Shown here: in pieces, positions 21,926 to 60,050 of the stretch
Numbering within the stretch: the stretch's first letter is position 1
How the letters are laid out: every line of letters starts with the position of its first letter
From: Myxococcales bacterium
GTDB lineage: Bacteria > Myxococcota_A > Polyangia > Palsa-1104 > JAEUJZ01
Direction: 5' to 3'
Assembly: GCA_016794465.1 (NCBI GenBank)
Contig: JAEUKA010000028.1
Location: forward strand, 64,001-124,050
DNA length: 60,050 nt
Translations under genes and position numbers: made by a program
Notes under the pieces: generated by a model
The model's database searches: none
The model's input: only the letters and a program-made list of their open reading frames with translations
Told to the model about the DNA's origin: nothing

Positions 21926-21939
21926 GGCTCACCCGAGGC

Positions 21940-26903: not shown

Positions 26904-26941
26904 CGCGATTCCCCGCTTCTAAATCGTAATGAAGACTACGT

Positions 26942-28531: not shown

Positions 28532-28636
28532 GTCCGTCGCCACCGTCTCGACGAAAACCGACTCGACCGCAGCGACGTTTGGGCGCTCACTTTCGCTCGA
28601 ACGACCGCGTTTACACGCCTGGGGTCGGCTGCTAGG

Positions 28637-30511: not shown

Positions 30512-30572
30512 TCATCGCCGCCACTTCCCTCTCATTGAACGGCCCGTCCCGCAAGCGATATGATGGCGCAGG

Positions 30573-31211
30573 GTGGTGGCTAAGCTTTCGCAACCACGTC
30601 AGCCTGCGGGCATGACGGAGCCGACGCCGCGAGTCTGTCCGGCGTGCAAGCGTCCGAGCCAGACTGCGGGGGAGCAGTTTTGTCCGCATGATGGCGCGAT
30701 CCTGATCGAGGCGTCCGACCTCCGCAACGCACAGGACGACCCGCTGCTGGGACGACGCATCGAGAGCTTTGCCATTGTGGCGCGCCTCGGTGAAGGCGGA
30801 ATGGGAACCGTGTACCGCGCCATTCAGATCGGAATGGATCGCGATGTCGCACTCAAGATCTTGCGCTCGGATCTGGCCCATGACGGTCGAGTGGTGCAGC
30901 GCTTTCATCAAGAGGCGCGCGCCACCGCTCGGCTGTCACATCGCAACCTGGCGACGGTCTACACCAGTGGCAGTACCAGCGATGGCATCTATTACATCGC
31001 GATGGAGCACCTCAACGGTCCGTCGCTAGAGCAGCTGATCGCGAGCGCCTGGCACAGTGTCGCCGGACATCCGACCTACAACCTGGAGCGACTCCGCGTG
31101 ATGCGTCTGTGGTGCCAGATCGTCGCGGCTCTGGCGCACGCGCACCGCTTGGGAATCGTTCACAGGGCACACAAGCGGAAGCGCTCTGCAACGATCCGGT
31201 ACGACTCCTAA
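30573..31211 (+). pseudogene. Hanks-type Ser/Thr protein kinase with an N-terminal zinc ribbon, truncated inside the catalytic loop
   Basis: CPACKRP...CPHDG, then GEGGMGTVYRA, VALKIL, HRNL and YIAMEHL are present. The protein ends GIVHRAHKRKRSATIRYDS* where HRDLKPEN is expected. DFG and APE motifs are absent from all three downstream frames. Confidence 0.6.
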
Positions 31212-34656: not shown

Positions 34657-34659
34657 CGG

Positions 34660-35571: not shown

Positions 35572-37543
35572 GTTCTTGTCCTACTGCTGCAAAGTGACTC
35601 GCACTGGAAGGTACATTCGGGGACCAGCTCGGCAGCTCGCACAGTCCTCCGCCCAAAAACAGGTGATGCCACAGCTGAGTCATCACCATTGTTGTGTAGC
35701 TGCCATCCACCACAAATCGCCTGGGCAGCGCGGCTGGCAGAAGCTGCTGCAGGCGCTGCTCATGCGCGACCTTCTCGACGGAAAAATAGCCTGTCTTACG
35801 CAGGGAATCCGGACTCGTAAGCTGCGCAATCCAGCGCGGCTGCGGGGTCAGAAGACACAGGGAGTTGGCCTTGAACATACTCTTGGGAAGCTCGGCCAGT
35901 GGACTGGGCAGAACCTGCGCCGCCACCTCACGCAGCAGCCACTTTTCCCGCATTCCGCGCAGCTTGTAGCGCGGCGACAGCTGCCGGGTCAGATCGATGA
36001 ACTCTTCATCCAAAAAGGGATAGCGAGTCTCGACGGAAGAGTGCATCGCCACCCGATCTCCCTTTCCCAGCAAGAGATGTCCCGGCAGCATCAGCTTATA
36101 TTCCAGATACAGAGACTGGTGCAGAGGGTCCCAGCGCTCCATCTTGGCCGGTGAAATGTCTAGCGCCGCAAACGGATTGTGCTCCCGAACAGAGTCCGCC
36201 ATGGCATCGGAATACAGCAGCCAGCGCGCCCGTGACAGCGGCTCATACAGATCGAGCAGACTTGGCCGCAGCACGCCAAAGTAACGGTCAAAGTGCGGCA
36301 CAGGAGTGCCCGGAGTTGCGAGCCACGACAGTCCGCTGCGCAGCCACGAAGGAAGAGCAGGATGCACAGCGGACAGAGTCCGTAGCGCCCGCGCCGACTT
36401 GTGCCAGACATAGCCGCCCATCGCTTCGTCAGCGCCTTCTCCGGTCAGGACCACTTTGAAGCCCCGGGCGGAAACCTGCTCTGCCAGCAAGAGCAGACAG
36501 GCGTTGGCAGTGTCCATCACCGGACCTTCCACAGCCTCAATCACCCTCGGCAAAGCAGAGAGAATCTCCGCTCCGCTGGGAACCAGAGTCACAAGCTCTG
36601 TTGCCAGCAGCTCGGCGGTCCGGGTCGATCGGGATCGCTCATCGGGCCCCGCTCCGTCAAATCCAACCGTAAAGGAAGTCAGCTTTCGCTGCGGACTGTG
36701 GGCGCGCGCCAGTCCCAAGATTAGGGTCGAGTCGAGTCCTCCGCTCAGGTACGTCGCCACCGGACCATCCGAGGCAAAGCGCCGCGCCACCGCGTCGGAC
36801 AGACAGCTCTGTAGCTCCTCGGTGAGGAGAGACTCGGACGCCACCACTCGCTCTTCCCCGGCGTTTGGGAAGTCGAGATCCCAGTATCTGTGCACGGAGA
36901 TCTCACCGCGCTGGACCCGCAAAAAGTGACCCGGCCACAGCGAAGAGATATTGCGAAAGGCAGTCCGCTGGGTTCCCGCAGCAAACAAGGAAAATACCTG
37001 ATCAATGCCGGCGTGATCGGCCTCTGCCGGAACCAGACCAGAGGCCAGCAGGCCCTTGATCTCCGACGACCAGAGCAGCATTCCGTCCACCACTGCATAG
37101 TACAAAGGACAGATTCCGATCCGATCCCGCGCAAGCAAGAGTGTCCGCTCTGCACTGTCCCACAAGGCCACCGCAAACTGCCCGTGTGCTAGCTCAAATG
37201 CGGCGACTCCTTTCGATAGATACAGCGCCGGCCAGATCTCTGTATCGCAGCGGGTTCGCAGCTGGTGTCCCTGCGCTGTCAGCTCGCGGTGAAGGGAGGG
37301 AGCATTGTAGATCTCTCCGTTACAGGACACCCAGACTCGCCCTTTTTCGTCGGAGAGCGGCTGTCTGCCATGCTCCACATCCATGATCGCGAGCCGCTGG
37401 GTAGCCATCGCAATGCCGCGACCCACAAAGGCCGCTGCATCATCTGGACCCCGGTGGCGCAGACTCGCCGCCATCCGCCACAGCTCACCATGAGACAGAG
37501 TCCTCTGTCCGCGCAGACAGACCGCCCCAACGATTCCACACAT
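35561..37543 (-). CDS. Asparagine synthetase B-like glutamine amidotransferase
   Basis: The N-terminal MCGIVG (Ntn Cys2) and PP-loop SGGLDS are present, in a 660-aa protein. The gene overlaps its neighbours by 11 and 7 nt. Confidence 0.85.
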   Translation of the reverse strand: MCGIVGAVCLRGQRTLSHGELWRMAASLRHRGPDDAAAFVGRGIAMATQRLAIMDVEHGRQPLSDEKGRVWVSCNGEIYNAPSLHRELTAQGHQLRTRCDTEIWPALYLSKGVAAFELAHGQFAVALWDSAERTLLLARDRIGICPLYYAVVDGMLLWSSEIKGLLASGLVPAEADHAGIDQVFSLFAAGTQRTAFRNISSLWPGHFLRVQRGEISVHRYWDLDFPNAGEERVVASESLLTEELQSCLSDAVARRFASDGPVATYLSGGLDSTLILGLARAHSPQRKLTSFTVGFDGAGPDERSRSTRTAELLATELVTLVPSGAEILSALPRVIEAVEGPVMDTANACLLLLAEQVSARGFKVVLTGEGADEAMGGYVWHKSARALRTLSAVHPALPSWLRSGLSWLATPGTPVPHFDRYFGVLRPSLLDLYEPLSRARWLLYSDAMADSVREHNPFAALDISPAKMERWDPLHQSLYLEYKLMLPGHLLLGKGDRVAMHSSVETRYPFLDEEFIDLTRQLSPRYKLRGMREKWLLREVAAQVLPSPLAELPKSMFKANSLCLLTPQPRWIAQLTSPDSLRKTGYFSVEKVAHEQRLQQLLPAALPRRFVVDGSYTTMVMTQLWHHLFLGGGLCELPSWSPNVPSSASHFAAVGQEHAV

Positions 37544-37549
37544 GCGGAT

Positions 37550-39697
37550 CTAGCTCGCCTCCACAGCTGGGATTCCCAGCGTCTTTGCGCGCAGCCAGCG
37601 CAGCCCCAGGGACGGAAAGAGCCGCAGCGCAATCGCCCGCAGCATGGGTGCGCTGGCCCGATCATGTGCTGCGTAGCCTTGCCAGATTCGCTGCCATGCT
37701 CGCGCCACCAGCGCTGGATCGGCACACTGCGCTAGCTCTTCCAGATAGAGCTTGATCGCCCGTACGGACCACGCAGTGTGACCGGAAGCACCGTTGTCGA
37801 TCGTGTTGTGAAGGACAAAAAAGTACGGATCAATGTGATGGTGTCGCAACAGTGCGCTGGCGCGGCTGTACATCTGTCCAACCCCGGCCAGCTCGACGGC
37901 AAGATTCAATCCCAGGAGCTCTGGGTAGAACTCTCTGCTGTGATAGGAGATCGCCAGCCACTGCACCGGAGTCGCAAAGGAATCGGGCAGAAATCCTGGC
38001 CAGCGGACAAAGTCCAGCGTGTCACAGGAAGGCAGCACAACTCCCTGCTCGGCCAAGACGGCTCTCATGATGTTGCCGTGATGTTGATGCGGAATACCGG
38101 CACCTAGCTCATCGCGGTAGATCCGAAACAGCAGACTCGAAGACTCCGCACAAGAGCAGTCTGGAGACGCCACCCCTTGTAGCCAAGCACCGTCGATGAG
38201 CGCGGCTGGCGTCAGCTGACAGAGCAGCCACAAGACTTGATCCCGCCGCAGATGTCGCTCGATTCCCAGCAGCTCGGAGTCGATCGCTGTCCCTGCCGCG
38301 ACCTGCTCCCTTAGTCGTGCATCCACCCAGTCTGTAAGTCGCTGCGCCGACCACGGCCACAGACCTTGTCTGTGAAGCACTTCGACTCGCGCTGCGGACT
38401 CCACTGCGTGCAAGCGCTGCGTCAAAAACTGGTGGGCCAGTGAAGCGGAATCGGCGCGATGAGGCGCAGTCAGCAAGCGATGGTAGATTATCGGCAGCGA
38501 CGGAAGTTGACTCTGTATCGCCGCTTCTTTAGGACTCTGTGTCAAAAGTATTGATACATCATGTAGAGCGGACGAAGCGGGCTCCGAAGCACTCAGCTCG
38601 GACGGTGGCGCAGTCGCAGAGTCCGGCAGAGCAGCAATCCAGTCGTGCAGGACCGCAAGCTCCGCATCATCAAAGACTCCGAACATCGATCCACCAAACT
38701 GGGTGGTGCGCTGCAGCAGCGGACTGTGTTCCGGATGTCCGGGAACCACCCAAGGAGAGCGCGCCAGCGTCGCGAGAAATCCCGCCAGATTGGGCTTACT
38801 GGGATCAAACCAGGCATCTAACGATCGGCCTTGCAGCTGCACATTCCGATGAAATCCAAAGCCATGGCGGCACTTCGATTCGACCAGAGTCATCATCGCC
38901 TGCCACGCAGTCTGCTTCCGTTTGGGACGAAGGGAAGCCAGCCACTTTCGTCGCTGATGATGTAGCGCTGCTGCTGCCGCATACAGACGATCCCAAGCGG
39001 GAGTACCGAGCGCGGCATAGGCCAGCAGACTCCGCTTTGCTAGCTGCTCGGCACAGCGCTGCTCCTTTTGATCGCGCTGATGCACGGCCAGATACTGACT
39101 CTGCACTTGCTCTGCCAGGGCGCTTCGGACCCGCAAAGGAGGCCCCCACAGTGTCATCGCCACGTGCATCCCAAGCACTTCTGGAAGCGCACTGGGTGAA
39201 GCCCGACCGATCCGCAGACCGAGGAGCGCCAGCGCAAAGTCCTCCTCTGTCAAGCGATCATCCTGACAGAGCGCATCACTCTGTGGTGAAGCCACCGCGA
39301 TTCCCTGCGCCGCGAGCGCCGCCCGATAGAGATTGCCGTGATGTTGCGTTGCACTTCCCGATCCGGTTTCCAGATAAAACGCATCGAGCAGAATCTGTCC
39401 GAGCAGACTATCTGTTCGATCTACTTGCACACTCCGTAGCAGCCAACATCCGTCGAGAAGTGCAGTGGGAGCATAGGCGATCAGCACCGTGGGTTGCGAG
39501 TCCGCTGGGAGCGCCGGTTGCTCGGCTTCCTCACGCAGGCCCAGCTCGCGAATGGCCGTCCACAGTTCCTCTGAACCTTCACAGCGCGGCAGCTGTCTAT
39601 CCAGCAGTACGGAAGGGAGTACCGGTTCGATCGACTCCTGAGGTCGCTGCACCAGCTGATAATAGGCAGATCGAATGCTTCCTTTCTGTCCAGGCAC
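37550..39697 (-). CDS. Tandem-domain 'iron-containing redox enzyme' (heme-oxygenase-like/PqqC-CADD-like fold, two copies)
   Basis: The motif LLDGcWL...LLqIl.DE.G.G....HHGN.....LA.QG occurs twice, at about aa 85-135 and about aa 510-560, in a 715-aa protein. It is the first gene of the operon. Confidence 0.5.
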   Translation of the reverse strand: MPGQKGSIRSAYYQLVQRPQESIEPVLPSVLLDRQLPRCEGSEELWTAIRELGLREEAEQPALPADSQPTVLIAYAPTALLDGCWLLRSVQVDRTDSLLGQILLDAFYLETGSGSATQHHGNLYRAALAAQGIAVASPQSDALCQDDRLTEEDFALALLGLRIGRASPSALPEVLGMHVAMTLWGPPLRVRSALAEQVQSQYLAVHQRDQKEQRCAEQLAKRSLLAYAALGTPAWDRLYAAAAALHHQRRKWLASLRPKRKQTAWQAMMTLVESKCRHGFGFHRNVQLQGRSLDAWFDPSKPNLAGFLATLARSPWVVPGHPEHSPLLQRTTQFGGSMFGVFDDAELAVLHDWIAALPDSATAPPSELSASEPASSALHDVSILLTQSPKEAAIQSQLPSLPIIYHRLLTAPHRADSASLAHQFLTQRLHAVESAARVEVLHRQGLWPWSAQRLTDWVDARLREQVAAGTAIDSELLGIERHLRRDQVLWLLCQLTPAALIDGAWLQGVASPDCSCAESSSLLFRIYRDELGAGIPHQHHGNIMRAVLAEQGVVLPSCDTLDFVRWPGFLPDSFATPVQWLAISYHSREFYPELLGLNLAVELAGVGQMYSRASALLRHHHIDPYFFVLHNTIDNGASGHTAWSVRAIKLYLEELAQCADPALVARAWQRIWQGYAAHDRASAPMLRAIALRLFPSLGLRWLRAKTLGIPAVEAS

Positions 39698-40055: not shown

Positions 40056-41267
40056 TCAGCGACGATAACCGATGGCGGAGCAGACTTGATCACGCTGCGC
40101 TGTAGAGAGCGCTAGGAGGGTCGCGATCAAGTCGTCTAGCGTTCCTCGCAGCGTTTCACAGACGCGAGCGCTGCGGGCTCCATCGAGCGCGCTCTGGCTG
40201 ATGTAGTGGCGCTTCGTCACTTCGTCCGAACCATGCCCCAGCGCCTGCGCCACGTAGCTCGAGCTTGCCCCTGCCTGCACTGCCAGCGAGGAATGCAGAC
40301 CACGCAGCGAGTGCGGGCAGACGACCGGCAGTTCGGCTTGATGGCAGTACTTCGTCAGCGCCTTGTGCAGACACGTCGCCGAAAGGACCGTCGAGCCATT
40401 GAGGGAGAAAATCAGCGCATCGGGCTTCAAGCTTGCCGCACGCCTGCGCAGTAGTTCCTTCACGATCGGCGCATCGAGCGCAAGCCGACGCTTGGCGTTC
40501 TTCGTCTTGGTCCCATCCACCACAATCACGCTAGCGTCGCAGTCGAGATCGCGCTTCTTGAGCTTGAGCACTTCGCTACTACGCAAGCCGAGAAACAACT
40601 GCGTCAGCAGTGCCAGCGCTCGCCACTCACCAAGCGATGCACGCTCTGTCAGATAGTCGCTTAGCCGCTTCGCTTCATCCGTCCGAAGCTGTAGCTTCCC
40701 TTTGTTCGCTCTGCCGATTGACTGCACATCATCAAAAGGATTCTTGGCGACAAGCTTCTTTTTCACCGCAAAGCGATACACCGCCTTCACTGCTCTCAGC
40801 GCGATTGCATGCGATGCCACAGCATACTTATCAACTGCCAGCAGATAGAGTGCTTCGGCCTTCTCTGGCGACATATGGGCAGGTTTGTCGAGCTTGGGAA
40901 CGATGCGCATGATCATGTGCTTCACATGAAGCAGCGAACGATCTAGACAGCCACGCTGTCGCTTATACTCGATAAACTGCGCAAGCAAATCACCCACTGT
41001 CAGCTTTGCAGAGTCGTCGAAGCTGGCAAGTAGGTTGCTTTTGGCCGTCTCGGCTTGCTGGACTGAGTCGAATACCAGAGACTTGCGCTTGTCGCCACTC
41101 TTGACGACAAGTCGCCACTTGTCATTGTTCGCGTACGGTCCTAGCACCTTGGGTGCCTCTTGTGGTTCGTCGGCTTGCGTCGCATCCTTCGTCTCTACTC
41201 TCTTGCGTGAGAGCTTGCGCTTTAGACTGCTACGTGGTGCGGTGTATAGATCATTGAGTGCGTTCAT
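40056..41267 (-). mobile_element. int: Tyrosine site-specific recombinase (phage-type integrase), left end of a lower-GC integrative element
   Basis: R...H..R...Y catalytic residues are present (LRSSEVLKLK, HSLRGLHSS, HGSDEVTKRHY). GC drops from this point rightwards. Confidence 0.85.
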
Positions 41268-48384: not shown

Positions 48385-48738
48385 ATGCACCATCGGAATT
48401 GCAACTCATGCGGGAAGAAGCTGGCGAACCGAGCGCCAGAGAAGACGCTGTTCTGTTCAATGCCTTGCAGAGTCAGAATGTGGCGCTATCTTCGCAGAAG
48501 AAGCCTCTCAGCCAATGTACGATGCCGCCGGACATTCCGCCGGACGTGCAGTTCATGCGGAGAGCAGCTAGCGCGGTACTCTCCAGCACAAAAGCTATTC
48601 TGTTCAATATCTTGCAGAGTCCGCAAATGGCGCTACCTTCGTAAAATAGGACTTGCTACATGCTGTGGAAACATCAGTCAAAAGCCATTGACATCGCTCG
48701 GCAGTGTGTGCTTGACAAAGACACCGGAAAGTTCTTGA
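48385..48738 (+). CDS. Small protein with two duplicated C4 zinc-ribbon units
   Basis: CNSCGKKLANRAPEKTLFCSMPCRVRMWRYLRRR and CSSCGEQLARYSPAQKLFCSISCRVRKWRYLRK correspond to an internal DNA duplication. The 3' end overlaps the helicase gene. Confidence 0.4.
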   Translation: MHHRNCNSCGKKLANRAPEKTLFCSMPCRVRMWRYLRRRSLSANVRCRRTFRRTCSSCGEQLARYSPAQKLFCSISCRVRKWRYLRKIGLATCCGNISQKPLTSLGSVCLTKTPESS

Positions 48739-49589
48739 TCCAGATCCCGCCTGGCACTGGCAAGACCGAGATCGCCGCAAGACTGGCGATCAGTTGGAGT
48801 ACGTCCAAGAACATGCGTAAGGCATTGATCTGTGTGCCAAATACGCGAATTCTTGGACAGTTTTACGACCGATTGGTAGCGCTCACTCCGCACGCAATAG
48901 GCGTTGATCAGGCAGGCCGGGCAGCCGATCCGCGTGCGCGCATTGTCATTGCAAGTCAGATGAGCTTGCTTGGACGACTGGCCAAGTATCCTCACGATGT
49001 ACTGTGCATCATCGACGAGGCTCACCACTCCAACTTTGATGCGCCGGAGTTTCTTCGAGTGGCTCGCTCCTTTGCGCGTGTCATCGGCTTGACGGCAACG
49101 CCATGGAGCAACGGATGCGACACGATCTTTGGTGGAGCGCAGCGCTACTTCCTGTCGCTGTCTGAAGCCACCGCCGCAGGGCTGGTTTGCGACTTCGACG
49201 TGTTGCCGTGGACGCCTCCCAGAGGGCCGTACGCCCTGGTCTTCTGTGAGTCAAACCGAGACTGTCAGTTCCACAGCGACAAGACGCCTGACTCTGACTG
49301 GATCGGCGTCACTCGCCCAGCGCCGAAAAACCTCTCGGCGATCATGCGCTGGCAAGCAAGAAAAATCGGAATCCTCTTTGTCAACAGGATGTTGCTAGAG
49401 GGCTTTGATAGCAAGGCCTGTGATGCCGTCTGGCTCAATCGTGTCACCCAGAGTGACATCTTGCTGGTTCAGATGTGCGGTCGTGCGTTGCGTCATCAGC
49501 CAGGCAAGCGAGCACGCATCATTTGTTCATGTCATGAGATGGTCGAGCGAGTCTTACACGCCTTAAAACGGCTTGATTCGCCAAGCTAG
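48660..49589 (+). CDS. SF2 DEAD/DEAH-box helicase (replication module of the element)
   Basis: Walker A PPGTGKT, DEAH IIDEAHH and motif III TATP are present. Confidence 0.75.
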   Translation: MLWKHQSKAIDIARQCVLDKDTGKFLIQIPPGTGKTEIAARLAISWSTSKNMRKALICVPNTRILGQFYDRLVALTPHAIGVDQAGRAADPRARIVIASQMSLLGRLAKYPHDVLCIIDEAHHSNFDAPEFLRVARSFARVIGLTATPWSNGCDTIFGGAQRYFLSLSEATAAGLVCDFDVLPWTPPRGPYALVFCESNRDCQFHSDKTPDSDWIGVTRPAPKNLSAIMRWQARKIGILFVNRMLLEGFDSKACDAVWLNRVTQSDILLVQMCGRALRHQPGKRARIICSCHEMVERVLHALKRLDSPS

Positions 49590-50218: not shown

Positions 50219-51739
50219 CTACTGCTTCTGCAAGAGCATCAGCGCCAGGGTCTTTTTGCCGTCGGGGCCGTAGTCGATTCGTTCGATGGTCTTCCAGCCT
50301 AGCTCGGCGAGGCTGTCACTGAGCAGCTTTGGGTCGTAGCGACGGACTCGCCACATGAGGAAGCGGCGATCGGGTCTGCCGTCGCGCATCTTGACGCGGG
50401 CGATGGCGTCGAAGCCGTAGCTGCCGGGGACGCCGCCGGGTGGGGCCAGCTCCCAGCGCAGCTCGATGTCCTCGGCACCTTGGCAGTAGCGACGAATCGG
50501 CCCGCTCAGCCAGTTCACATGCGTGGGTCGCAGCTTGCCGTTGCCGATGGGGTCCACTTTGAGGATCTTCTGTCGCTCGCTCGCCGGGGCACGCGCGATC
50601 TGGAGGTCGAACAGAAACAGCTCGCCCGGCTCGCAGCAGCTCAGCGTGTCACGGAAAAAGCGCAGCTCGTCGCTCAGGTTGACGAGCGTGTATCCCAGCA
50701 TCGCGAACAGCCGCGTCCGCCCTCGCAGCGGATTGACCATCATTGGCAGCTTCGGCAAGTCGAGGAAGCTGCCGTGGATGGTGTAGGTGCGAATGTCGGG
50801 CAGCGTCTCGCAGCAGTGACGATAGGCGGCATTCAGCAGCGAGTGGCTCACGTCGAGCAAGAACAGCTCCGTCTGCTTGGGCATGCGAAGCTGCATCTGA
50901 AGATGCTTGACGAGCATCGATTCCGTCTTGCCGTCGCCGCAGCCGAGCGCATCCACGGTGAGCGCCTGTTCTCCAATCAGGTCGGCGACTCGACGAGAAA
51001 CCGTCGCCAGCGGCAGCGTCTCTCGAAACTCAGAGCCATACTCGGGCGACGAACAGGTGGTCAGCCAGTCCTTCGCGCTGTGATGGTCGATGTACACCAG
51101 CGTCTGCTCGAGCTGACCACTCGGACCATTCAGCGTGTCCGCCAGCTCGGTGATCATGCTCACCGGGTCATAGGTCATGCCGAGCCACGAAGTCGGCGTG
51201 TGACGGTAGCCCGCGCTCATCTCGGCGGACAGCTCGATGTCGCTCACGCGCAGGTTTAGCTCGGGCACAGCGAGGAGCTTCAGCATCAAGCTCCGTCGAG
51301 CCTTCCGAGTGTGATGCTCCAACTGGCGAATCGTCGTCGCTGTCACGCCGACGCGATCGGCCAGCCACTCTTGCGTAAGCGCGGCGGCAGTCCGTCGCTG
51401 AAGCAGCCGCTCGCCAAACTTCACCCAGTCAATCGGCCCAATCGCCTCGCTGTCGTCGGTGTCTCCAACCAGCGTCAGCGCCTCCTGAATCGCTCGCACC
51501 GCTCGGTTGTGGTCCTTGACGAGGTGCGGCGGCAAGAGCTGAAGCGAGTGCAGCGTATCAACGAGCTTGCTCTGTACTCGCGAGAGCTGACTAACAGAGT
51601 CCTCTAGCGCCGAGTCCTGCGTCGGCAACTCGGGCGGCATGACGTGCTCTGCATCCGTCTCGAAACTGTCGTGTTCGCCGCTCTTGACCGCTGTCTGTTC
51701 GTGCATGACCGATGCCTCCATTTCGGCCACAGATAGCAC
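50219..51739 (-). CDS. HTH (XRE) domain fused to an EgtD/Methyltransf_33-like SAM-dependent methyltransferase
   Basis: The HTH is LTQEWLADRVGVTATTIRQLE. LGCGDGKT is the SAM-binding loop, and EgtD-like blocks follow (FAMLGYTLVNLSDEL, LFLFDLQIA). Confidence 0.6.
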   Translation of the reverse strand: MLSVAEMEASVMHEQTAVKSGEHDSFETDAEHVMPPELPTQDSALEDSVSQLSRVQSKLVDTLHSLQLLPPHLVKDHNRAVRAIQEALTLVGDTDDSEAIGPIDWVKFGERLLQRRTAAALTQEWLADRVGVTATTIRQLEHHTRKARRSLMLKLLAVPELNLRVSDIELSAEMSAGYRHTPTSWLGMTYDPVSMITELADTLNGPSGQLEQTLVYIDHHSAKDWLTTCSSPEYGSEFRETLPLATVSRRVADLIGEQALTVDALGCGDGKTESMLVKHLQMQLRMPKQTELFLLDVSHSLLNAAYRHCCETLPDIRTYTIHGSFLDLPKLPMMVNPLRGRTRLFAMLGYTLVNLSDELRFFRDTLSCCEPGELFLFDLQIARAPASERQKILKVDPIGNGKLRPTHVNWLSGPIRRYCQGAEDIELRWELAPPGGVPGSYGFDAIARVKMRDGRPDRRFLMWRVRRYDPKLLSDSLAELGWKTIERIDYGPDGKKTLALMLLQKQ

Positions 51740-51919: not shown

Positions 51920-52249
51920 ATGCAAGAGTCACCAGCCCAGATCGCCACTACTACCGCTGAAACCACCACGACTCTCCCGAAGCAGCGACGAGGCTTCGCG
52001 GTGATGGACCCAGACAAGCTACGTGTGGTCTGTGCTCGCGGCGGACAGACCGCCCACGCGCTAGGCCGGGCACACCGCTTCGACACCGAGAAGGCATCGC
52101 AAGCCGGAAAGAAGGGCGGAGCGACGGTGAGCGCAGATCGCTCCCACATGGCCGAGATCGGCAGCCGAGGCGGCAAAGCCAAGAAGGGCTACCGAGAGAG
52201 GCAAGCCGCACGATGCCAAGCCGAGGCAGAGACGACCCAGATCGGCTGA
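51920..52249 (+). CDS. KGG-repeat general stress protein
   Basis: KGG-type repeats are present: ARGGQTAHALGRAHRF, GKKGGATVSADRSHMAEIGSRGGKAK. Confidence 0.55.
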   Translation: MQESPAQIATTTAETTTTLPKQRRGFAVMDPDKLRVVCARGGQTAHALGRAHRFDTEKASQAGKKGGATVSADRSHMAEIGSRGGKAKKGYRERQAARCQAEAETTQIG

Positions 52250-52440
52250 CCCCGATTTGAGCGCAGATCGCTTGACCCCGATCTGAGCGCAGAGTGCCGT
52301 ACCGCTCGCTCGACCCTGATCGCCAAGCCCCGAGCGGCATGCAGATCGCTTGAGTCCGAGCGCGGCGCCTGTTCGATTGAGCGCCACGTTCCCCGGACAT
52401 CACAACCCTGGCTCGACTGCCGAACCATCCACGCAGATCG
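52250..52440. repeat. Cluster of short direct repeats (gaccccgatYtgagcgcaga x2; gcagatcgcttga x3)
   Basis: The repeats are visible in the intergenic DNA between the KGG gene and the FRG operon. Confidence 0.55.
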
Positions 52441-52540
52441 CTACTTGACCCACATTCCCCGCTGCGGTACGCAAGGCGTTGTAACGGCGCAACCCGCCGT
52501 GCGACCGAGACGATCCTTAAGAACAACAGAGATTGATCCA

Positions 52541-53383
52541 ATGGCATCGATTGAATACAGCTTATTTCGAGCAAAGTTCATCAAGCATCCCCAGAGAGTC
52601 CTATTACATCCAGATTGGACCCCGATGCAGATATTTCTAAGTGCAATAAATGATCGACCTTCCGCTGAGATCCGCCGTGGGTATATTTGGCACGTTGGGA
52701 ACGTTCAGCATTTCACTGAGAGTTCCGGGTATTTTGCAATTGGCCGCACCACGACCTCTACTATTGAAAAATTTGACAGCTCGACTGGTAATTTTGTGGT
52801 TGAGGAACTCGAAGAAAGCCCATACACGCACTGCGTTTTTGATGCACAAATCGGATTTGTCGGAATTGCAAGAAAATCCAGTTTGGCTCAGACTGCGAAG
52901 GGTGTTGCTACGCGCCTAGAGCAGCTATTGAGTCTATCGAAGTCCGTCGCAGACCACAATTGTTCTGTCGAAGTTGCACCGATTCCAGACCCGGAGGGTT
53001 TCCTGCGCGCACTCCACTCCGCCTATCGAGTGACGCGCTTCTCAGCTACGTTCCATGGTCCCAATCCATTTGATGCGGATGAGCATTTTCAAAAACCTCT
53101 GTCCGTCTATCTGTCATCTGCCAATGGCAGAAAAGGCAGGGCACAGATCCAGGGCGAGGACCTTAATCGAGAAGTGCTTCACGCGGTTACTAAGAGCACG
53201 GCTTCTACTGGCAACGAAGCTTCAGCCCGAATATCAAAAACTAAGTCTCAGCGGCCAATAACCATCAACCTCAAAGGCGATCCACTCAAACGCCGTTACA
53301 CAGAAGATGAGCATGAACCCAGAGTAGTCTTGGCTGACCTGACACAGGTGTACCACCGGGTAAGAAGTGATGACCAACGTTGA
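52541..53383 (+). CDS. Hypothetical protein of about 280 aa. First gene of a two-gene low-GC operon whose second gene encodes an FRG-domain protein.
   Basis: ATG 52541 is the likely start (track ORF begins at 52445). GC is about 45-50% against about 60% in the surroundings. The stop overlaps the next start (GTGATGA). Confidence 0.55.
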   Translation: MASIEYSLFRAKFIKHPQRVLLHPDWTPMQIFLSAINDRPSAEIRRGYIWHVGNVQHFTESSGYFAIGRTTTSTIEKFDSSTGNFVVEELEESPYTHCVFDAQIGFVGIARKSSLAQTAKGVATRLEQLLSLSKSVADHNCSVEVAPIPDPEGFLRALHSAYRVTRFSATFHGPNPFDADEHFQKPLSVYLSSANGRKGRAQIQGEDLNREVLHAVTKSTASTGNEASARISKTKSQRPITINLKGDPLKRRYTEDEHEPRVVLADLTQVYHRVRSDDQR

Positions 53384-54164
53384 GATAGTTTCCATCGAAG
53401 ACCTAATCAGGCGCTTTAATGAGTTACCCAATCATTTTTTGTATCGCGGCCAGGCAAATGCGGAATGGTTGCTCACGTCTTCACTGGAACGAGTTGTCGG
53501 TGCCAAGTGGTCGGCAGACCAAGCAAAGAAATTTGAAGATTTCTCACTGCATCAATTTCAATCCAAATTTCATTTGTATGATCGAGAAAATGTGAAGCCT
53601 GATTCGAGATTAGCTTGGTTATCGATCATGCAACATTACGGAGTTCCGACACGGCTTCTGGATTTTACGGAAAGTTCATACGTCGCACTCTATTTCGCGC
53701 TTGAATCCTACAACCCACAGAGTGGGGAGGACTTCTCTGTCTATGCTATTGATTATAGCGGCATAATGGATCGTTCGATTGCCCACATACGTTCCAAGGA
53801 CGGTGGATTCAGCGAAACAAGACAGTCCATGTTCGACAAGCAAGATATGATATTCGACACAGTTGTGGACCGATTTTCTTACGATATTGCATGGAGCGCC
53901 GAACCAAAACAGCTTAATGCCCGCTTGGATCGTCAAGCTGGTTCGTTCTTGCTCTCAGGAAATCGTGGGTTGCGTATTCAGGATGTCCTCGATTCAGCAT
54001 TGTACTCAGAGGTTGCTATGTACAAATTTCGTATTTCTCACGAACTATACCCTAACGTATTTGCCCTTCTTCGGAAAATGAACATCACGAGTAAGAGTCT
54101 CTATGGTGATCTGGAAGGGCTTGCGCGTTCCGTCAAAATGCAGTTGCAGGTCTACTCAATCTAG
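53367..54164 (+). CDS. FRG-domain protein
   Basis: FLYRGQANAEWLLTSSLER ... LSIMQHYGVPTRLLDFTESSYVALYFA matches the FRG domain signature (F-R-G, QHYG.PTRLLD, ALYFA). Confidence 0.7.
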   Translation: MMTNVEIVSIEDLIRRFNELPNHFLYRGQANAEWLLTSSLERVVGAKWSADQAKKFEDFSLHQFQSKFHLYDRENVKPDSRLAWLSIMQHYGVPTRLLDFTESSYVALYFALESYNPQSGEDFSVYAIDYSGIMDRSIAHIRSKDGGFSETRQSMFDKQDMIFDTVVDRFSYDIAWSAEPKQLNARLDRQAGSFLLSGNRGLRIQDVLDSALYSEVAMYKFRISHELYPNVFALLRKMNITSKSLYGDLEGLARSVKMQLQVYSI

Positions 54165-54710
54165 CAGCATATCCAACAACCCCACGCTGCCCGCCCCTTC
54201 CGTCCCGCGCAACTGTAGGCGGTGGCCTCACCTGAACGGCACCGTTGGGAGTTGATCGGTACCCTTCGGCCCCCGTTGTACTAACCGAGCCTCTTGCGTA
54301 TTTTCCGCGATGTGCTAGAGCAGGCGCCGTGCTGCACAAGCTTGCGGCCATTTGATCGTGCTGGCTGGTTCCTGCCATGGAGCAAAGATTGCACGCCCCC
54401 AAAGCAGGATTGTGCGATCATCGGTTTGGGCGCTGTCTGGCTAAAGAAATTAGTGGCAGCCGAGGCTTCCTCTCACATCTCATCAGATGGGAGAGGGGAA
54501 CTCCCAACAGCTTTCTCGATGGGTGGGATGTCATGAGCCCGAACAAACGTCGGTATCGGCAAGGTCCTGAGCCATCCGAGGGCAGTAGTTGTTCGAGAGT
54601 ACTTCAGTTTTCGGTGACCCGAGTGGAGCGACCAACTCTTGCCATCGAGATGCTTGCCGGCCGCTACGAAACTGTGTAAGCGTCCCACCTTCAATAGGAG
54701 TGAGACGATC

Positions 54711-57700
54711 ATGGACTCGCGCCAGAGGGAGATCCCCCGGCTGCTCAATCAGACAGCTACTCACGAAAGTCCGACAGCAATGCCGGCTCCGGCGCCCCAG
54801 TCTCCGCCGCTCAACCTCGACGGATTAATTCGTTCGATGGGGGTCAACCGGCCCTGCCGACACATGCTGCTACTTGGTGCCGGCGCCAGTATTACCTCGG
54901 GGATTCCGTCGGGCTGGCAGTGCATTTGGCAGTGGAAGGCCGAAATTTACATCTCGAATCAGCCTCACGTTTCACAGGCACTCCTTGGCGATCCGACTCT
55001 GCCGCATGTTCAAGATCGCATCCAGGCATGGCTTGATGCGACCGGCGGATTTCCCAAGAATGGTGCCCCTGACGAGTACCAGTTTTTTGCTGAACGTTGT
55101 TACCAGGAAGCTCGTGATCGGCAGAGGTTCTTTGAAAAAATCATCACTGACGGCACACCGAGCCTCGGCTACAAGCTGCTGGCCCTCCTCATCGAAGCCA
55201 GTCACTTCCGATGGATCTGGACGACGAACTTCGACAACATGCTAGGGCGAGCCCGCGACAGCGGACACAAGCGGATCATTCGCGAAGTGGGAATGGATAG
55301 CCGTGATCGAGCGCTCGCGGCTGAGCCGGATGACCAGGCGCTCCAACATATTTTTCTGCACGGTGACTTCCGCTACGACCGGCTCCGCAATACCGCGACG
55401 GAGCTGCAAGCAATGCACGAGGAATTCCGCGGCCAGTTGAGCCAGCAGTGTCTGCACTATCCACTCGTCGTGGTTGGGTACAGCGGCAGAGACGACAGCG
55501 TGATGACAGCGCTCGAGGCCGCCTATGCCCAGCGGGGAGAAGGAGGACTCTACTGGCTCGGCATGCGGGGAAGTAGCCCGCATCCTCGGGTCCAGGCACT
55601 GATCGAGAAAGCGACTGCTCAGGGCCGTCGGGCAGAGTATATCGAATGCGATGGCTTCGATGCTCTCATGCACCAACTGGCCAGGTATCTACTTCGGGAC
55701 GAGCCATGGGCCGGGCGAGCGCACGAACTGATCAAGAGCAGCCCATCGCCAAGGAGAGCCTTTTCCTTGGCCGACTATCACCCGACTGGCCGGATTATCA
55801 AGAGTAACTCGTGGCCAGTCGTTGCGCCGACCCACCTCTATCAGCTGCGCTCCCCAGCCGAGATCCAAAGCTGGGAGGATCTCCGCGAACGAACGGCCAA
55901 GGCAGGTGGACGGATCTGTGCCGGCCTCACCAGCGGCAAGATCATCGCCATGGGCCTTCAGGCAGATATCCTGTCCTGCTTCGGCAGGGAGGCGAGTGAG
56001 CCCATCGAGCAAATCCCGGTCTCGCCGAAAGAACTCTTTTTTGAGGATGGAGTTGTGCTGTCCATTCTTCGGGAGGGACTGGTACGAAGTCTCGCAACAG
56101 GAGGACTTCGCGCTGCCACGGAGCATCGCAGATGGTACCTGTACGATCCGTCCCAGCGACGGACATATCGATGGCAGCATGAAACCGCCGTATTCTATCA
56201 AGCGGTGCTGGTGCGCCTCGAGCAGCGTGCCGGGCAACTCTATCTCTCGCTGATTCCTGAACCATACATACCCGCGGACGAACAGCCGGCTGCGTTTGCC
56301 AAAGGCAGCCTGGCGCCGCTCAAAGCTGCTCTCGTTGGGCGGCAATGGAACCGAGCATTTAATGACGAGCTGAACGAGTGGCGATCCCGTCTTAAGCTCA
56401 ACGCCAAGCTCCAGTCGGTTGCGACGATCTTTCCAGCCGGACATGAAACCGGCTTCCGCTACACCATCCAAGCTGGTCCTCTCTTCATAGAGAAGCACGC
56501 TCGAGATCGTCCTAATCGAGCAGCAGCCCGGCCAGGACCCGCGGCACTGTATCGCTTCAAGGGGTTTGAGCTACGTGAGCCGGAACTCCGGTTCGCTTGT
56601 GGCACCGATTTCCATCCGATCCGCGGATTGACGCAGGGCGGACCAATTGAACTGTCGGCCGGAATTACTTCTCCAAGGCGAGAATTGCGCGTCGGTGTCA
56701 TCTGTCCTGACAGTGCGACCCGGCAGCTCGGTCCTTTTCTCAGGGCTCTTCACAATCCCCATCTCACGGTCGAGACAAAGGAAGAGTACCTGCCGACCTA
56801 TCCTGGCTTCGAGTCGGCCTTCCGTCTGCCGTTACATACTCCACTCGTGTCGGAAGATGGCTGGGTAACAATCCCAAGCCAAACCAGTACTGGCGTGCGC
56901 GAGCAAGCGTTTCAAGAGCTGTGTGGACGTGTGACCTCATCCATCGATCGGCTAGCCGCAGGAGCTGGCGTTGATGTAGTACTCATTTTCATCCCTCGCT
57001 CATGGGCACCGTTTGAGTCGGTAGAAACTGAGACGATGGATCTCGATCTTCACGACCAAATCAAGGCGTACTGTGCCGTGCGCGGTATCCGGACGCAGTT
57101 CCTTCGTGAACATACCCTCGAAAAGCCGCAGCGGGCGGAGGTGCTTTGGTGGTTGGCACTGGCGCTCTATGCCAAGTCCATGCGCACCCCCTGGATCTTG
57201 GCTCGGCCGCAAGAGAACGTCGCCTATGTTGGGATTGGCTATGCCGTCGACCGACGAAACCGAGACCGGCCAATCGTCCTCGGATGCAGCCACATCTTCC
57301 AGTCGAACGGGCTGGGGCTTCGCTTTAACTTGAGCAAGGTTCAGGAGCCAATCTGGCGCGGAAAAAATCCTTACCTGGGACGGGATGATGCCCTTCGCGT
57401 CGGGCTCCAAACCCGCCAGCTCTTTCTTGAATCGCTGGTCAGGCTGCCCTCTCGAGTTCTGATCTGCAAGCGCACCCCGTTCATCAAGGAAGAACTTGAT
57501 GGTCTGCGCGCTGGGCTGACGGGAATCTCATCCCTGGACTTCTTGACCATCGAATATGAGCCGGCCTGGAGATGCCTGGCATGTATCACCAAGGACCAGC
57601 AAATTCTGCCGGCACCCTTTCCGGTTCGTCGGGGTACCGGTGTGTTACTCGATGATGAGAGCTTCTATCTCTGGCTGCATGGCAGCGTCGAACGGATCAA

Positions 57701-57953
57701 TAGCGCGGGCAAGACCTATTACCAAGGCAAGACCCGGATTCCGGCACCAGTACGCGTCCGCCGCTATGGCGGCTCCTCGACCATCGAGCAGCTTGCTCAG
57801 GACCTTCTGGGCCTGTCAAAAATGGATTGGAATACCTTCGACCTCTATGAACAGATGCCAGCCCATGTGACCACTCCGGGGCGCATCGCACGTATTGGCC
57901 GGCTCCTGCAACGACTTGCGCCGGAGTGCTTTGACTACCGCTTGTTCATGTGA
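54711..57953 (+). CDS. Single-polypeptide short prokaryotic Argonaute: SIR2 - APAZ - MID - catalytically inactive PIWI (SPARSA-like fused clade)
   Basis: Sirtuin motifs are GAGASITSGIPSGW (compare GAGISxxxGIPDFR), TTNFDNML and FLHGD. PIWI hallmarks are VLWWLALALYAKSMRTPWIL (compare ALKINAKLGGIPW), VGIGYAVDRR (an inactive counterpart of the GIDVSH strand) and C-terminal RIPAPVRVRRYGG (compare PAPVYYA). ATG 54711 follows aggagtga. Confidence 0.75.
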   Translation: MDSRQREIPRLLNQTATHESPTAMPAPAPQSPPLNLDGLIRSMGVNRPCRHMLLLGAGASITSGIPSGWQCIWQWKAEIYISNQPHVSQALLGDPTLPHVQDRIQAWLDATGGFPKNGAPDEYQFFAERCYQEARDRQRFFEKIITDGTPSLGYKLLALLIEASHFRWIWTTNFDNMLGRARDSGHKRIIREVGMDSRDRALAAEPDDQALQHIFLHGDFRYDRLRNTATELQAMHEEFRGQLSQQCLHYPLVVVGYSGRDDSVMTALEAAYAQRGEGGLYWLGMRGSSPHPRVQALIEKATAQGRRAEYIECDGFDALMHQLARYLLRDEPWAGRAHELIKSSPSPRRAFSLADYHPTGRIIKSNSWPVVAPTHLYQLRSPAEIQSWEDLRERTAKAGGRICAGLTSGKIIAMGLQADILSCFGREASEPIEQIPVSPKELFFEDGVVLSILREGLVRSLATGGLRAATEHRRWYLYDPSQRRTYRWQHETAVFYQAVLVRLEQRAGQLYLSLIPEPYIPADEQPAAFAKGSLAPLKAALVGRQWNRAFNDELNEWRSRLKLNAKLQSVATIFPAGHETGFRYTIQAGPLFIEKHARDRPNRAAARPGPAALYRFKGFELREPELRFACGTDFHPIRGLTQGGPIELSAGITSPRRELRVGVICPDSATRQLGPFLRALHNPHLTVETKEEYLPTYPGFESAFRLPLHTPLVSEDGWVTIPSQTSTGVREQAFQELCGRVTSSIDRLAAGAGVDVVLIFIPRSWAPFESVETETMDLDLHDQIKAYCAVRGIRTQFLREHTLEKPQRAEVLWWLALALYAKSMRTPWILARPQENVAYVGIGYAVDRRNRDRPIVLGCSHIFQSNGLGLRFNLSKVQEPIWRGKNPYLGRDDALRVGLQTRQLFLESLVRLPSRVLICKRTPFIKEELDGLRAGLTGISSLDFLTIEYEPAWRCLACITKDQQILPAPFPVRRGTGVLLDDESFYLWLHGSVERINSAGKTYYQGKTRIPAPVRVRRYGGSSTIEQLAQDLLGLSKMDWNTFDLYEQMPAHVTTPGRIARIGRLLQRLAPECFDYRLFM

Positions 57954-58014
57954 CCCGAGCGACAGAAGCAGTTATTATATCCGGGAAACACTCCAGGAAG
58001 AACGTAGCGGCTAC

Positions 58015-59403
58015 CTAGCGGATCGAACTTGATAGCTCAATACCTTTGAGCCGCCGGAACAGAGCAGAAGCAAAGCTATCTGCCATACCCGCAACATAGT
58101 CAGTTGCCTTCAGTATTTTCTGATAAGCAGTTTCCGAATCTCGAACCACTATTCCTGAAGCCTTCAGTACCATCTTTTGCCTGTGAGTTCTTTCGTTCGA
58201 GTGAGCAATCACCGCAGGAATTAGTTCATCGAGAAGTCCAGCTATAATATTGTAGCCTGCGACTTGCATTTCCACGACGAACTGATGCTGATAGCAATGC
58301 TGCTTGGTGAATTCGATGATCTTCTCGAGTTCTGTGTTAGATTCAATAACTTTGATAATTTCCTTCTTATACGTGCCTTCCATGATTTCGGGAAATGTTT
58401 CTTTGTCGAGAAATACCTCGCAGACTTCAGTTCTTAATCTCTGAATTGCTCGCCCTCGTAAGTGAACGATATCATTTGCTTTTTTCGGATCAAAACCATT
58501 GGCTTTCTTAGCAATTTTCCTGATTAGCTCGAGAGCTTCTTTCTTATTTACATATTTTAATCGGATTCCGTCTTCTAAGTCTAATATTGTGTAGCTGATG
58601 TTGTCTGCCGCTTCCACTAAAAATGAGAGAGGATGTCTAGCATGTACTATATCAGCATCTACCTCTTTAGGCAATTTGATCCTATTTAATCCAACATGTC
58701 TTGCAATCATCGCTAAAGCAGATTTGTCCTCCTGAAAGCAGCCATGCTTCTTGGCAGCAATATTATCATGCTGGCAGATCTTAATGTCGTCTCCAGATTC
58801 ACGGGGGTACTTGCAGAACGCAGCTAGGGTTGCCGCTGTCAATTGGAGACCGCCGGTATCAGCATTTTGTAACCGAGTCAGTAACCGGAAGCCCTGAGCA
58901 TTCCCTTCAAACTTGGTTAGATCGCTCTTCTGCCGACGGGTCAACTCACTAGCCAGCAAGGGATTTCTTTCAAAGAAACTGACAAAATATTTGGCGATTG
59001 CATCTTCCCCGGCATGACCAAAAGGAGGGTTGCCGATATCATGCGCTAGGCAGGCAGCATGGATAACATCCCCGATATCGGCTGCAAAGCGCGGAAATTT
59101 CGAGCGTATGGCATTGTCACGCTCAGCCAGTATTGATCCTACGGTATGACCGAGTGACCTGCCAACCGAGGCTACTTCAATGCTATGGGTTAACCGAGAA
59201 TGCACATGATCATTCTCTGGCATTGGAAAAACTTGAGTTTTGTCGTGCATCCGACGAAATGCAGATGAAAATAGGACTCTATCCGAATCTCGATAATAAT
59301 CTGAACGATGTTCTTCCTTACGCTCGGATAAGAATTTATACTGTTCGCTCATGGCATCAAAGGCCAGGCGTCGATTTGATAGTAGCTTCCTCCATTCGTA
59401 CAT
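58015..59403 (-). CDS. dGTPase-family dNTP triphosphohydrolase (HD domain). Putative anti-phage nucleotide-depletion enzyme.
   Basis: RSDYYRDSDRVLFSSAFRRMHDKTQVF...RLTHSIEVASVGRSLG...AACLAHDIGNPPFGH match Dgt motifs. ATG 59403 is preceded by ggggg. The low-GC extension to 59646 is rejected. Confidence 0.7.
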   Translation of the reverse strand: MYEWRKLLSNRRLAFDAMSEQYKFLSERKEEHRSDYYRDSDRVLFSSAFRRMHDKTQVFPMPENDHVHSRLTHSIEVASVGRSLGHTVGSILAERDNAIRSKFPRFAADIGDVIHAACLAHDIGNPPFGHAGEDAIAKYFVSFFERNPLLASELTRRQKSDLTKFEGNAQGFRLLTRLQNADTGGLQLTAATLAAFCKYPRESGDDIKICQHDNIAAKKHGCFQEDKSALAMIARHVGLNRIKLPKEVDADIVHARHPLSFLVEAADNISYTILDLEDGIRLKYVNKKEALELIRKIAKKANGFDPKKANDIVHLRGRAIQRLRTEVCEVFLDKETFPEIMEGTYKKEIIKVIESNTELEKIIEFTKQHCYQHQFVVEMQVAGYNIIAGLLDELIPAVIAHSNERTHRQKMVLKASGIVVRDSETAYQKILKATDYVAGMADSFASALFRRLKGIELSSSIR

Positions 59404-59670
59404 GACACCCCCAAGTAGTGAAGCTGGATACACTAGAAACTTTGGATTTTCGCCCCCCCTAGGCGCAGCATCGTCCAGCAAGTGAGCGCCTGGTGCCTGT
59501 CTAGACAAGCTACCCCAGGATACTGCCAATTTCGTATCTAGAATTACATTATTTGTCACAATTAGTCGATGAACTGACAGGCTGGCGGGTCGTACATCCA
59601 AACGCGGTTTCGGCTGGATGGTCCCGGAACGGTGCGCCTGGACCATGCCGGGTTAGGCGACGGCACCAGA

Positions 59671-59926
59671 CTGCCTGATACAGATTGCTCGCCTCGTTGC
59701 CGACTGGGAACGCTGACAAACCCGAGTTTGGACCACAAGCGCGGCGCGTGCGAGTGTTGGAGTGGATTTTTCAGGGTCTGGGATTTGTTCGCTTGGCTAC
59801 GCCTCCGCAGCGTAGCGCTTGCGGGGGTTTGGGCGAGTTTCCGACTTCCGTGCTTTTCTGTATCGGAGGCGGGGAAGTTTTGGCGATTTTCTCGACGGGA
59901 GAAACTGTCTGATACAGACAGTCGCC
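59671..59926. repeat. Two related sites about 235 bp apart (ctgcctgatacagattgctcgcc; CTGTCTGatACAGACAGtcgcc, a perfect 7-bp-arm palindrome), plus a hairpin gctacgc-N7-gcgtagc at 59796-59816. These lie at the right edge of the low-GC island.
   Basis: Visible directly in the sequence. Function unknown (operator, att or terminus). Confidence 0.5.
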
Positions 59927-60050
59927 GATGCGTGAACGAAACTGCGCACGGCTTACCCTTCGGCAACAATTGCACTCAAAAAACGCTTGCCTATTTTTGC
60001 TCGGTGTTCCGGGCATCCGCGCTGTGTTGAGGCCAGGCGAAGCAGGGCTC

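Follow-up and report, generated by a model that had tools for sequence, protein, structure and literature searches.

The locus described here raises the question of whether one gene, found in DNA from a Myxococcales bacterium (assembly GCA_016794465.1, contig JAEUKA010000028.1), encodes a complete guide-dependent immune protein in a single chain, and of how the block of DNA carrying it came to lie where it does. The stretch analysed, referred to throughout as the window, comprises 60,050 nt. The gene occupies positions 54711..57953 on the forward strand and, according to the open reading frame (ORF) listing, PADLOC, matches to PDB sequences and an AlphaFold2 model, encodes a fusion of SIR2, APAZ, MID and PIWI domains, the architecture of the short prokaryotic Argonautes (pAgos) known as SPARSA-A or clade S1A. 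It is highly probable, given the strong homology with characterised relatives, that the product is a functional single-chain SPARSA-A immune protein. The gene is an ordinary, intact member of a large known family; the exchange of the block around it is the only aspect that is possibly new, and the context matters here more than the gene.

A SIR2-APAZ-MID-PIWI fusion in one polypeptide

In the ORF listing of the window the reading frame extends at its longest from 54639 to 57953 (+), giving 1104 aa from a TTG codon. The ATG at 54711 is codon 25 of this ORF, follows 10 nt after a Shine-Dalgarno motif read from the sequence (AGGAG, 54696..54700, +) and is the start also picked by gene callers on public contigs, resulting in a product of 1080 aa followed by a stop codon. 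A reading of the DNA made without database searches (the sequence-only reading) had placed a single fused ORF at 54711-57953; the ORF is real and these coordinates are exact, although the length of 1081 aa given there included the stop codon. At an orthologous locus (L001, 90% nucleotide identity) homology starts just 40 nt 5' of this ATG and the same start is kept, with a full-length product of 1081 aa (P0122, MBL9007480.1). The frame is uninterrupted for 3.2 kb, the identical protein is found on 12 Logan contigs from several sequencing runs, and copies at 99-100% identity occur across many samples. Every motif quoted in the sequence-only reading is present in the translation: GAGASITSGIPSGW at aa 56-69, TTNFD at aa 171-175, LHGDFRY at aa 216-222, ALYAKSMRTPWIL at aa 818-830, GIGYAVD at aa 841-847 and PAPVRVRR at aa 1011-1018.

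The full-length fused pAgo model of PADLOC (PDLC02384) matches aa 34-1080 with 1020 bits and E = 0, and a second fused model, Aga_SIR2-PNTD1-PNTD2 (1010 positions), reaches 654 bits, whereas the PADLOC models for separate Sir2-APAZ and pAgo proteins each match one half at about 345 bits. Among PDB sequences, the two halves are matched by the two chains of the Geobacter sulfurreducens SPARSA: aa 50-437 by the GsSir2-APAZ chain (8in8_B; GsSir2 residues 18-404; E 2.3e-39) and aa 622-1080 by the GsAgo chain (8in8_C; E 2.6e-54). Across the SPARSA chains in the PDB, the matched ranges come to aa 50-524 and 622-1080. The Agos of SPARDA, SPARHA and SPARTA rank next, at E 1e-20 to 1e-10. With 1456 of the scored candidates qualifying as homologues at E <= 1e-3, in addition to the PADLOC value and the PDB matches, the identification is far beyond chance. 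The sole family recognised by Pfam is SIR2_2 (PF13289), at aa 169-288 (E 2.9e-11).

An AlphaFold2 model of the 1080-aa protein, built on 44 homologues, has a mean predicted local distance difference test score (pLDDT) of 84.2 and a predicted template modelling score of 0.73, with disorder (pLDDT <50) confined to the N-terminal ~30-33 aa. In Foldseek searches against the PDB the top match is the SPARSA Ago 8jkz_B (template modelling score, TMt, 0.88; root-mean-square deviation 2.7 A), and the SPARSA Sir2-APAZ chain 8y80_E is matched with TMt 0.65 and E 4.5e-29 over 595 aligned columns. The long but inactive RsAgo aligned over ~800 columns, as expected if APAZ replaces the N-terminal lobe. Both the SIR2 and the PIWI folds, recovery of which had been proposed as a check, are thus found by profile as well as by structure comparison.

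The domains follow one another along the forward strand. The SIR2 nicotinamide adenine dinucleotide (NAD) hydrolase (NADase) domain (aa ~35-330; 54813..55700) is delimited by Pfam SIR2_2, alignment to GsSir2 and family conservation, and the beta-rich APAZ region (aa ~345-600; 55743..56510) by the PADLOC Aga_SIR2-PNTD1-PNTD2 models (aa 38-1080 and 47-569) and Foldseek 8y80_E. The fusion junction or linker to the pAgo part lies near aa 600-620, where pLDDT dips (aa 600-610). The MID domain (aa ~622-830; 56574..57200) is placed by alignment to GsAgo, and the PIWI domain (aa ~831-1080; 57201..57950), read as catalytically dead, by register with GsAgo and by family conservation. APAZ stands in the place of PAZ and the canonical N domain, as is characteristic of short pAgos; Pfam PAZ and ArgoN gave no match at E 0.1 on the 1080-aa protein. 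Pfam, PADLOC, PDB, AlphaFold2 and Foldseek evidence together bear out the order SIR2-APAZ-MID-PIWI in one polypeptide that had been read from the sequence. Domain order, fold and the conservation of residues validated by mutation in Geobacter are direct observations.

Conservation was assessed in an alignment (A1) of 44 fused homologues, whose identity to the query is 37-77%, and residues were mapped to the Geobacter chains by HMMER alignment. The SIR2 motifs comprise GAGAS (56-60), TTNFD with N173 and D175, an HGD loop with H217, and GYSGRD with D261, and G56, G58, S60, N173, F174, D175, H217, G218, D219 and D261 are invariant in A1. N173, D175, H217 and D261 align with GsSir2 N142, D144, H186 and D230; alanine mutants of GsSir2 N142 and H186 lose NADase activity (PMC10781750), and D230A abolishes NAD+ binding and defence (bioRxiv 10.1101/2021.12.14.472599). 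The sirtuin N/D/H residues noted earlier are thus retained on proper alignment.

The Argonaute half and the proposed mechanism

The 5'-phosphate pocket of the MID domain is formed by H781, K785, Q796 and K822, three of which (H781, K785 and K822) align with GsAgo H166, K170 and K207; in GsAgo, H166 contacts the 5'-phosphate (PMC11452484). K785, Q796, K822, N1041 and the C-terminal R-L-F are invariant in the Ago part of A1, with conservation of at least 90% for H781 and P887. The equivalents of GsAgo N434 and M473, which hold a divalent cation (PMC11452484), are N1041 and the C-terminal M1080, and D779 matches D164, which reads guide base A1 (PMC11452484). A predicted sensor loop spans aa 876-890, and its tip N886-P887-Y888 aligns with GsAgo N272-P-Y274, where N272 and Y274 are required for activation (PMC11452484). 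Judged by alignment, the residues of GsSir2/Ago whose importance mutation has shown are all present here.

The PIWI domain very likely lacks the DEDX catalytic tetrad, as judged by register with GsAgo, secondary structure and the literature, in which all short pAgos are described as lacking it (Zaremba et al., bioRxiv 10.1101/2021.12.14.472599; Koopal et al., PMC9097488). The tetrad slots were placed by register with GsAgo and with strands beta1 and beta4 as predicted in the model; the catalytic Asp slots appear to hold G843 (in GIGYAV) and R921 (in CKRTPF), and the fourth slot G1057. Within A1, K920 does not vary, and conservation is at least 90% at G841 and G843. The earlier proposal that the first catalytic Asp is replaced in GIGYAVD agrees with this placement. 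However, PAPV...RR, previously taken as a MID/PIWI hallmark, is instead a strand conserved across the family (in A1, R1009, I1010, P1011 and P1013 do not vary) and not the equivalent of the PIWI 'PAPAYYAH' helix, which by register corresponds to MPAHVTTPGRIARIG (aa 1049-1063).

By homology with Geobacter SPARSA, the protein would load a guide, oligomerise on meeting a target, act as an NADase and produce the corresponding phenotype. The MID/PIWI half would hold a short 5'-phosphorylated guide, its 5' end seated in the H781/K785/Q796/K822 pocket, while N1041 and the terminal carboxylate (M1080) would coordinate a metal ion. Once complementary single-stranded DNA of an invader is bound, the nuclease-dead PIWI domain and APAZ would cradle the guide-target duplex, and the sensor loop (aa 876-890, tip N886-P-Y888) would detect the duplex and trigger oligomerisation. 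This may reposition H217 of the SIR2 domain, leading to hydrolysis of NAD+ (N173, H217, D261), and the resulting depletion of NAD+ would stop the infected or plasmid-carrying cell in what would be an abortive infection response.

Several results weigh against this account or narrow it. The Pfam Piwi model does not reach E 0.1 on the 1080-aa protein, and an NCBIfam search of the same protein gives no family. Similarly, comparison of the family profile with the human Ago2 PIWI sequence (100% identical to PDB 4ola residues 590-859) was not significant: hhalign gave no meaningful alignment, and local hmmsearch gave a non-significant 19-residue match in which RVVIHKRT is paired with RIIFYRDG and R921 stands opposite D669. 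It is consequently by register, secondary structure and literature that G843, R921 and G1057 are placed in the tetrad slots. The GsAgo residues that read the guide 2'-OH groups, Y240, H310 and K396, correspond to I855, P923 and Q1005 here, and the A1 and U2 readers F158 and R190 to V771 and K805, so that of the base and 2'-OH readers only D164 (as D779) is kept. Since F158, R190, Y240, H310 and K396 are unconserved, the preference of the Geobacter system for 5'-AU RNA guides is not transferable, and the alignment suggests that the protein may not share the guide chemistry and 5'-end preference of GsAgo. Lastly, the fused PgSir2-Ago of Paraburkholderia graminis gave no plasmid interference, which makes the target range uncertain (bioRxiv 10.1101/2021.12.14.472599).

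The gene that adjoins the pAgo gene suggests another explanation, namely that the two form one cooperative system in which NAD+ and dNTPs are depleted jointly or one gene regulates the other. This neighbour encodes a dGTP triphosphohydrolase (dGTPase; 58015..59403, minus strand, 462 aa from MYEWRK; PADLOC dGTPase 6.4e-70; NCBIfam TIGR01353, 319 bits against a cut-off of 152); a longer ORF of 543 aa probably starts too early, and gene callers choose the 462-aa form in several contigs. It is convergent with the pAgo gene at a distance of 61 nt, accompanies it in every near-identical copy (L007 and L036-L040; 12 contigs with identical pAgo), and the shared block is bounded on either side by the same repeat element. 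However, tblastn over the homologue loci found the dGTPase only in L007 and L036-L041, and it lies beside none of the more distant homologues examined (L001, with its 90% nucleotide-identical pAgo, L002-L006 and L031-L035). The GC content of 44% for the dGTPase, which sits in a region of 58-60% GC, against 58.5% for the pAgo gene argues for separate origins, the convergent orientation means that there is no operon, and the dGTPase fits a stand-alone PADLOC defence model. Moreover, besides APAZ, no protein was found to be specifically associated with short pAgos by Koopal et al. (PMC9097488). The 61-nt gap between the genes folds no better than shuffles. A joint system is unlikely; because of its GC content and its presence only with near-identical pAgo copies, the dGTPase gene is most likely a defence gene in its own right that was transferred along with the pAgo gene, rather than its partner.

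It is scarcely credible that the protein has a housekeeping role, whether as a sirtuin-type deacetylase or as a regulator, as its public names would have it: SIR2_2 is all that Pfam recognises, and the NCBI and JGI names of cluster members and homologues say SIR2 or deacetylase, but SIR2 makes up just ~300 of the 1080 residues, the remainder being APAZ-MID-PIWI with high confidence, and SIR2_2 is itself the domain named in the PADLOC SIR2-APAZ defence models. The Zn-binding Cys4 module of classical sirtuin deacetylases (two CxxC pairs) was not found in the protein, in which the sole CxxC is at aa 955 and the cysteines within aa 1-340 are at 49, 71, 130, 247 and 313; the gene is also set among matches to defence-gene models (candidate system PDC-S15 and dGTPase). 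That the gene is a decaying or silent relic, unexpressed or not activatable, might be suggested by the patchwork nature of the region, where one gene or more looks truncated (a ResIII helicase fragment of 309 aa), and by the failure to find a strong sigma-70 consensus promoter upstream, where the promoter and terminator consensus scan was uninformative. This is nevertheless very improbable given the 3.2-kb open frame, the retention of all invariant family residues, the good ribosome-binding site, the 99-100% identical copies in many samples and the full-length orthologue at 90% nucleotide identity. A functional single-chain SPARSA-A protein remains the preferred reading.

The exchanged block and its surroundings

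The pAgo and dGTPase genes form a 5.7-kb block bracketed by direct repeats, the two copies of a junction element of ~100 nt. The left copy (54253..54355, +; nhmmer E 9.7e-25), with its core TACCCTTCGGCCCCCGTTGTACT at 54260-54282, marks the start of the block, and the right copy (59948..60044, +; nhmmer E 9.4e-16; core 59954-59976) marks its end, the window stopping just after it. The window contains two matches to the core, TACCCTTCGGCnnCnnTTGyACT, where 0.01 would be expected; a search for attachment sites near the tyrosine recombinase described below found no further core copies in the window, whether up to 3 mismatches were allowed or nhmmer was used. One Logan contig (L007) is 99.2% identical over window 54254-59962 and carries unrelated DNA on either side, two others (L036 and L040) hold the same block in a third left context, and L001 shares the pAgo gene alone with the window. 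The block is thus seen in at least three different left contexts.

A scan of metagenomes with the core returned 23 contigs, 21 of which are similar well beyond it (nhmmer E 1e-15 to 1e-26). In these 21 contigs the sequence to the right of the core falls into four classes, and that to the left is unrelated cargo. Genes beside the element include PD-Lambda-5_A, a CHAT protease, type I restriction-modification-like genes, kinases and a transporter, in addition to SPARSA, dGTPase and FRG/PDC-S15. Of 17 distinct flanks, 8 carry a TGAAC box between 21 and 37 nt upstream of the core, where 0.64 would be expected. Neither viral contigs nor PLSDB plasmids gave a match to the element or to the pAgo leader. 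A structured RNA was considered for the element and rejected: RNAalifold gave no consensus pairs (14 copies), Rfam had no match over 39000-60050, and single-sequence folds of the junctions were inconsistent.

To the left, contigs L019 and L023 show synteny over window 52002-52473, a segment comprising a KGG-repeat protein gene and a promoter-like TTGACC-N17-TACGCA sequence. Past 52473 they carry a 717-aa ORF, whereas the window carries an overlapping pair of genes with a GC content of 45-49%, one for a 280-aa protein with no family match (52541-53383, +) and one for an FRG-domain protein (53367-54164, +; PADLOC candidate system PDC-S15, E 8.5e-46), which fill the slot just before the pAgo block; the element then follows. 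The left border can be placed at 52250-52540 (compare L019 1490-1620, L023 1-130, and L010), where the promoter-like sequence ends at ~52473 and differing genes begin. A 58-nt repeat unit is present at 52233-52368 in three degenerate copies, with spacings of 26 and 52 nt.

Because contexts and cargo differ across contigs, window 52.47-60.05 kb is read as a variable hotspot of exchangeable blocks. The exchange point is placed at the left edge of the core, since in the right copy the second base of the core is not the same in L007 as in the window. An integron cassette was rejected, as there is no IntI and the exchange lies at the core's left edge, 15 nt before GTT, and not at the G|TT of an attC R' box. 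The sole recombinase in the window, a phage-type tyrosine recombinase of 403 aa (40056-41267), is 13 kb from the pAgo gene and is not an integron integrase (TIGR02249, 25 bits against a cut-off of 265). A convincing long direct repeat flanking 39.5-60 kb was not found. The 'mobile island' of the sequence-only reading accordingly survives as a variable hotspot, with a block found in at least three left contexts, but mobility itself is only partly shown. Possible routes of exchange are site-specific recombination, tandem integrative elements each with a target copy, or homologous recombination between repeated promoter-like regions. As a tentative and rather doubtful proposal, the pAgo and dGTPase genes may be a discrete 5.7-kb cassette moved by an undescribed recombination at the left edge of the element, which would define a non-integron defence-gene array or hotspot in a Myxococcales-like lineage. 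Should the swapping prove site-specific, immune genes would be shuffled here by a new route.

The rest of the window, which is chromosomal, is of mixed character. A type VI secretion cluster at 3932-23280 (minus strand) encodes a MORN-repeat protein, VgrG, TssG, TssF, a TssE-like protein, Hcp, TssC, TssB, TssA, TssM (1370 aa), DotU and TssK, with a periplasmic-binding-protein-like gene and a tetratricopeptide repeat gene inserted between TssM and DotU. The region 24000-31000, with a GC content of 63-68% and a strong negative AT skew, is unlike the flanking secretion region in composition and holds a 705-aa ORF with no solid family match and a gene for a 624-aa OmpA/thrombospondin-repeat protein. 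Co-oriented genes at 33235-39697 (minus strand) encode a PLD-like protein, an AurF-like di-iron oxygenase (weak match), an asparagine synthase-like amidotransferase and a 715-aa haem-oxygenase-like iron redox protein, and look like a small natural-product biosynthesis cluster. Beyond the tyrosine recombinase GC content is patchy; a prophage at 41.3-48.3 kb was rejected, with one weak PHROG tail-fibre match among 10 ORFs. At 48436-49589 two 71-nt direct repeats (48436-48506 and 48583-48653, 75% identical) precede the 309-aa ResIII/DEAD helicase ORF, which is apparently truncated because it matches only parts of much longer restriction/helicase models. A 506-aa protein (50219-51739, minus strand; GC at third codon positions 81%) unusually pairs an Xre-type helix-turn-helix with Methyltransf_33 (EgtD-like histidine methyltransferase), and is kept beside the hotspot in L019.

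Family membership and comparison with known systems

Nearly all of the best 120 of the 1456 homologues are ~1040-1090 aa long and cover 94-99% of the query. Members recovered from a genome collection come from Myxococcales, Actinomycetota, Acidobacteriaceae and Latescibacterota metagenome-assembled genomes, whereas plasmid relatives are mostly distant two-gene systems (identity <=33%) and phage relatives are partial matches, all below 30% identity. One homologue (P0008; 1321 aa, 53% identical) has an extra N-terminal region of ~250 aa with a Pfam match to PNP_UDP_1 (nucleoside phosphorylase), which may represent an additional effector domain or a fusion arising in gene calling. In contigs L033 and L034, which hold homologue P0009, the gene for this fused pAgo (52% identical) adjoins a phage large-terminase gene (Terminase_6N) and scaffold-like genes, suggesting that some S1A genes are carried at prophage ends.

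Public labels of close relatives are 'SIR2 family protein' or 'NAD-dependent SIR2 family protein deacetylase' (NCBI, JGI), and the two members of the 90% cluster, MBL9007480.1 and MBL9041543.1, are labelled only 'SIR2 family protein [Myxococcales bacterium]' at NCBI. Defence censuses relying on such labels miss the gene, since NCBIfam is without a model, Pfam gives SIR2_2 only and the names say SIR2 or deacetylase. The gene adds one intact S1A sequence from a Myxococcales-like lineage, and its guide preference could differ given the MID/PIWI contacts that differ from GsAgo. As there is no fused SPARSA structure among the PDB matches, it may be a single-chain candidate for structural work, and it could find a use as a one-protein nucleic-acid detection reagent.

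Among known systems, ThsA of Thoeris and DSR2 share a SIR2-type NADase with an Asn-His pair and NAD+ depletion in abortive infection (PMC10781750). However, these are triggered by signalling nucleotides or phage proteins and not by an Argonaute, and the PADLOC ThsA match here is marginal (E 0.046). SPARTA (TIR-APAZ and a short pAgo, clade S2A) and SPARDA/SPARHA (nuclease-APAZ and a short pAgo, clade S2B) have the same MID-PIWI fold (TMt ~0.8 in Foldseek) and share the logic of guide-dependent target sensing leading to oligomerisation and a toxic effector (PMC9097488). Their effectors are TIR and nuclease domains, whereas the effector here is SIR2, and the sequence similarity is limited to the Ago half and much weaker (E 1e-10 to 1e-20).

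The closest solved and characterised relative by PDB and Foldseek comparison is GsSir2/Ago, the Geobacter SPARSA (clade S1B; 8in8, 8jkz, 8y7z and 8y80), which the sequence-only reading had named as a relative. The halves of the protein described here match its two chains at 23-28% identity and TMt 0.65-0.88, and keep its NADase residues, MID pocket, Mg ligands and sensor-loop tip. Unlike the protein described here, which is a single chain with a linker, GsSir2/Ago is encoded by two overlapping genes and forms a heterodimer; its 2'-OH readers and F158/R190 are also not kept.

The fused architecture had been described as less studied. This holds for structures, since all PDB matches are two-chain systems and a literature search found no paper on an S1A structure, but not for the clade as such, which is named, has two tested members and counts hundreds of relatives. 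The definition of clade S1A as 'SIR2-APAZ-pAgo fusions (SPARSA-A)' goes back to Koopal et al. 2022 (PMC9097488). The fused S1A protein of Joostella marina, JomSIR2-APAZ-pAgo, lowers NAD in E. coli (PMC9097488), and in the same host PgSir2-Ago protects ~500-fold against lambda-vir and ~400-fold against SECphi27 (bioRxiv 10.1101/2021.12.14.472599). The protein described here shares with both the SIR2-APAZ-MID-PIWI order in one polypeptide and the clade definition, a likeness drawn from architecture and not from sequence alignment, and differs from them in its origin in a Myxococcales-like lineage and in its disordered N-terminal extension of ~33 aa.

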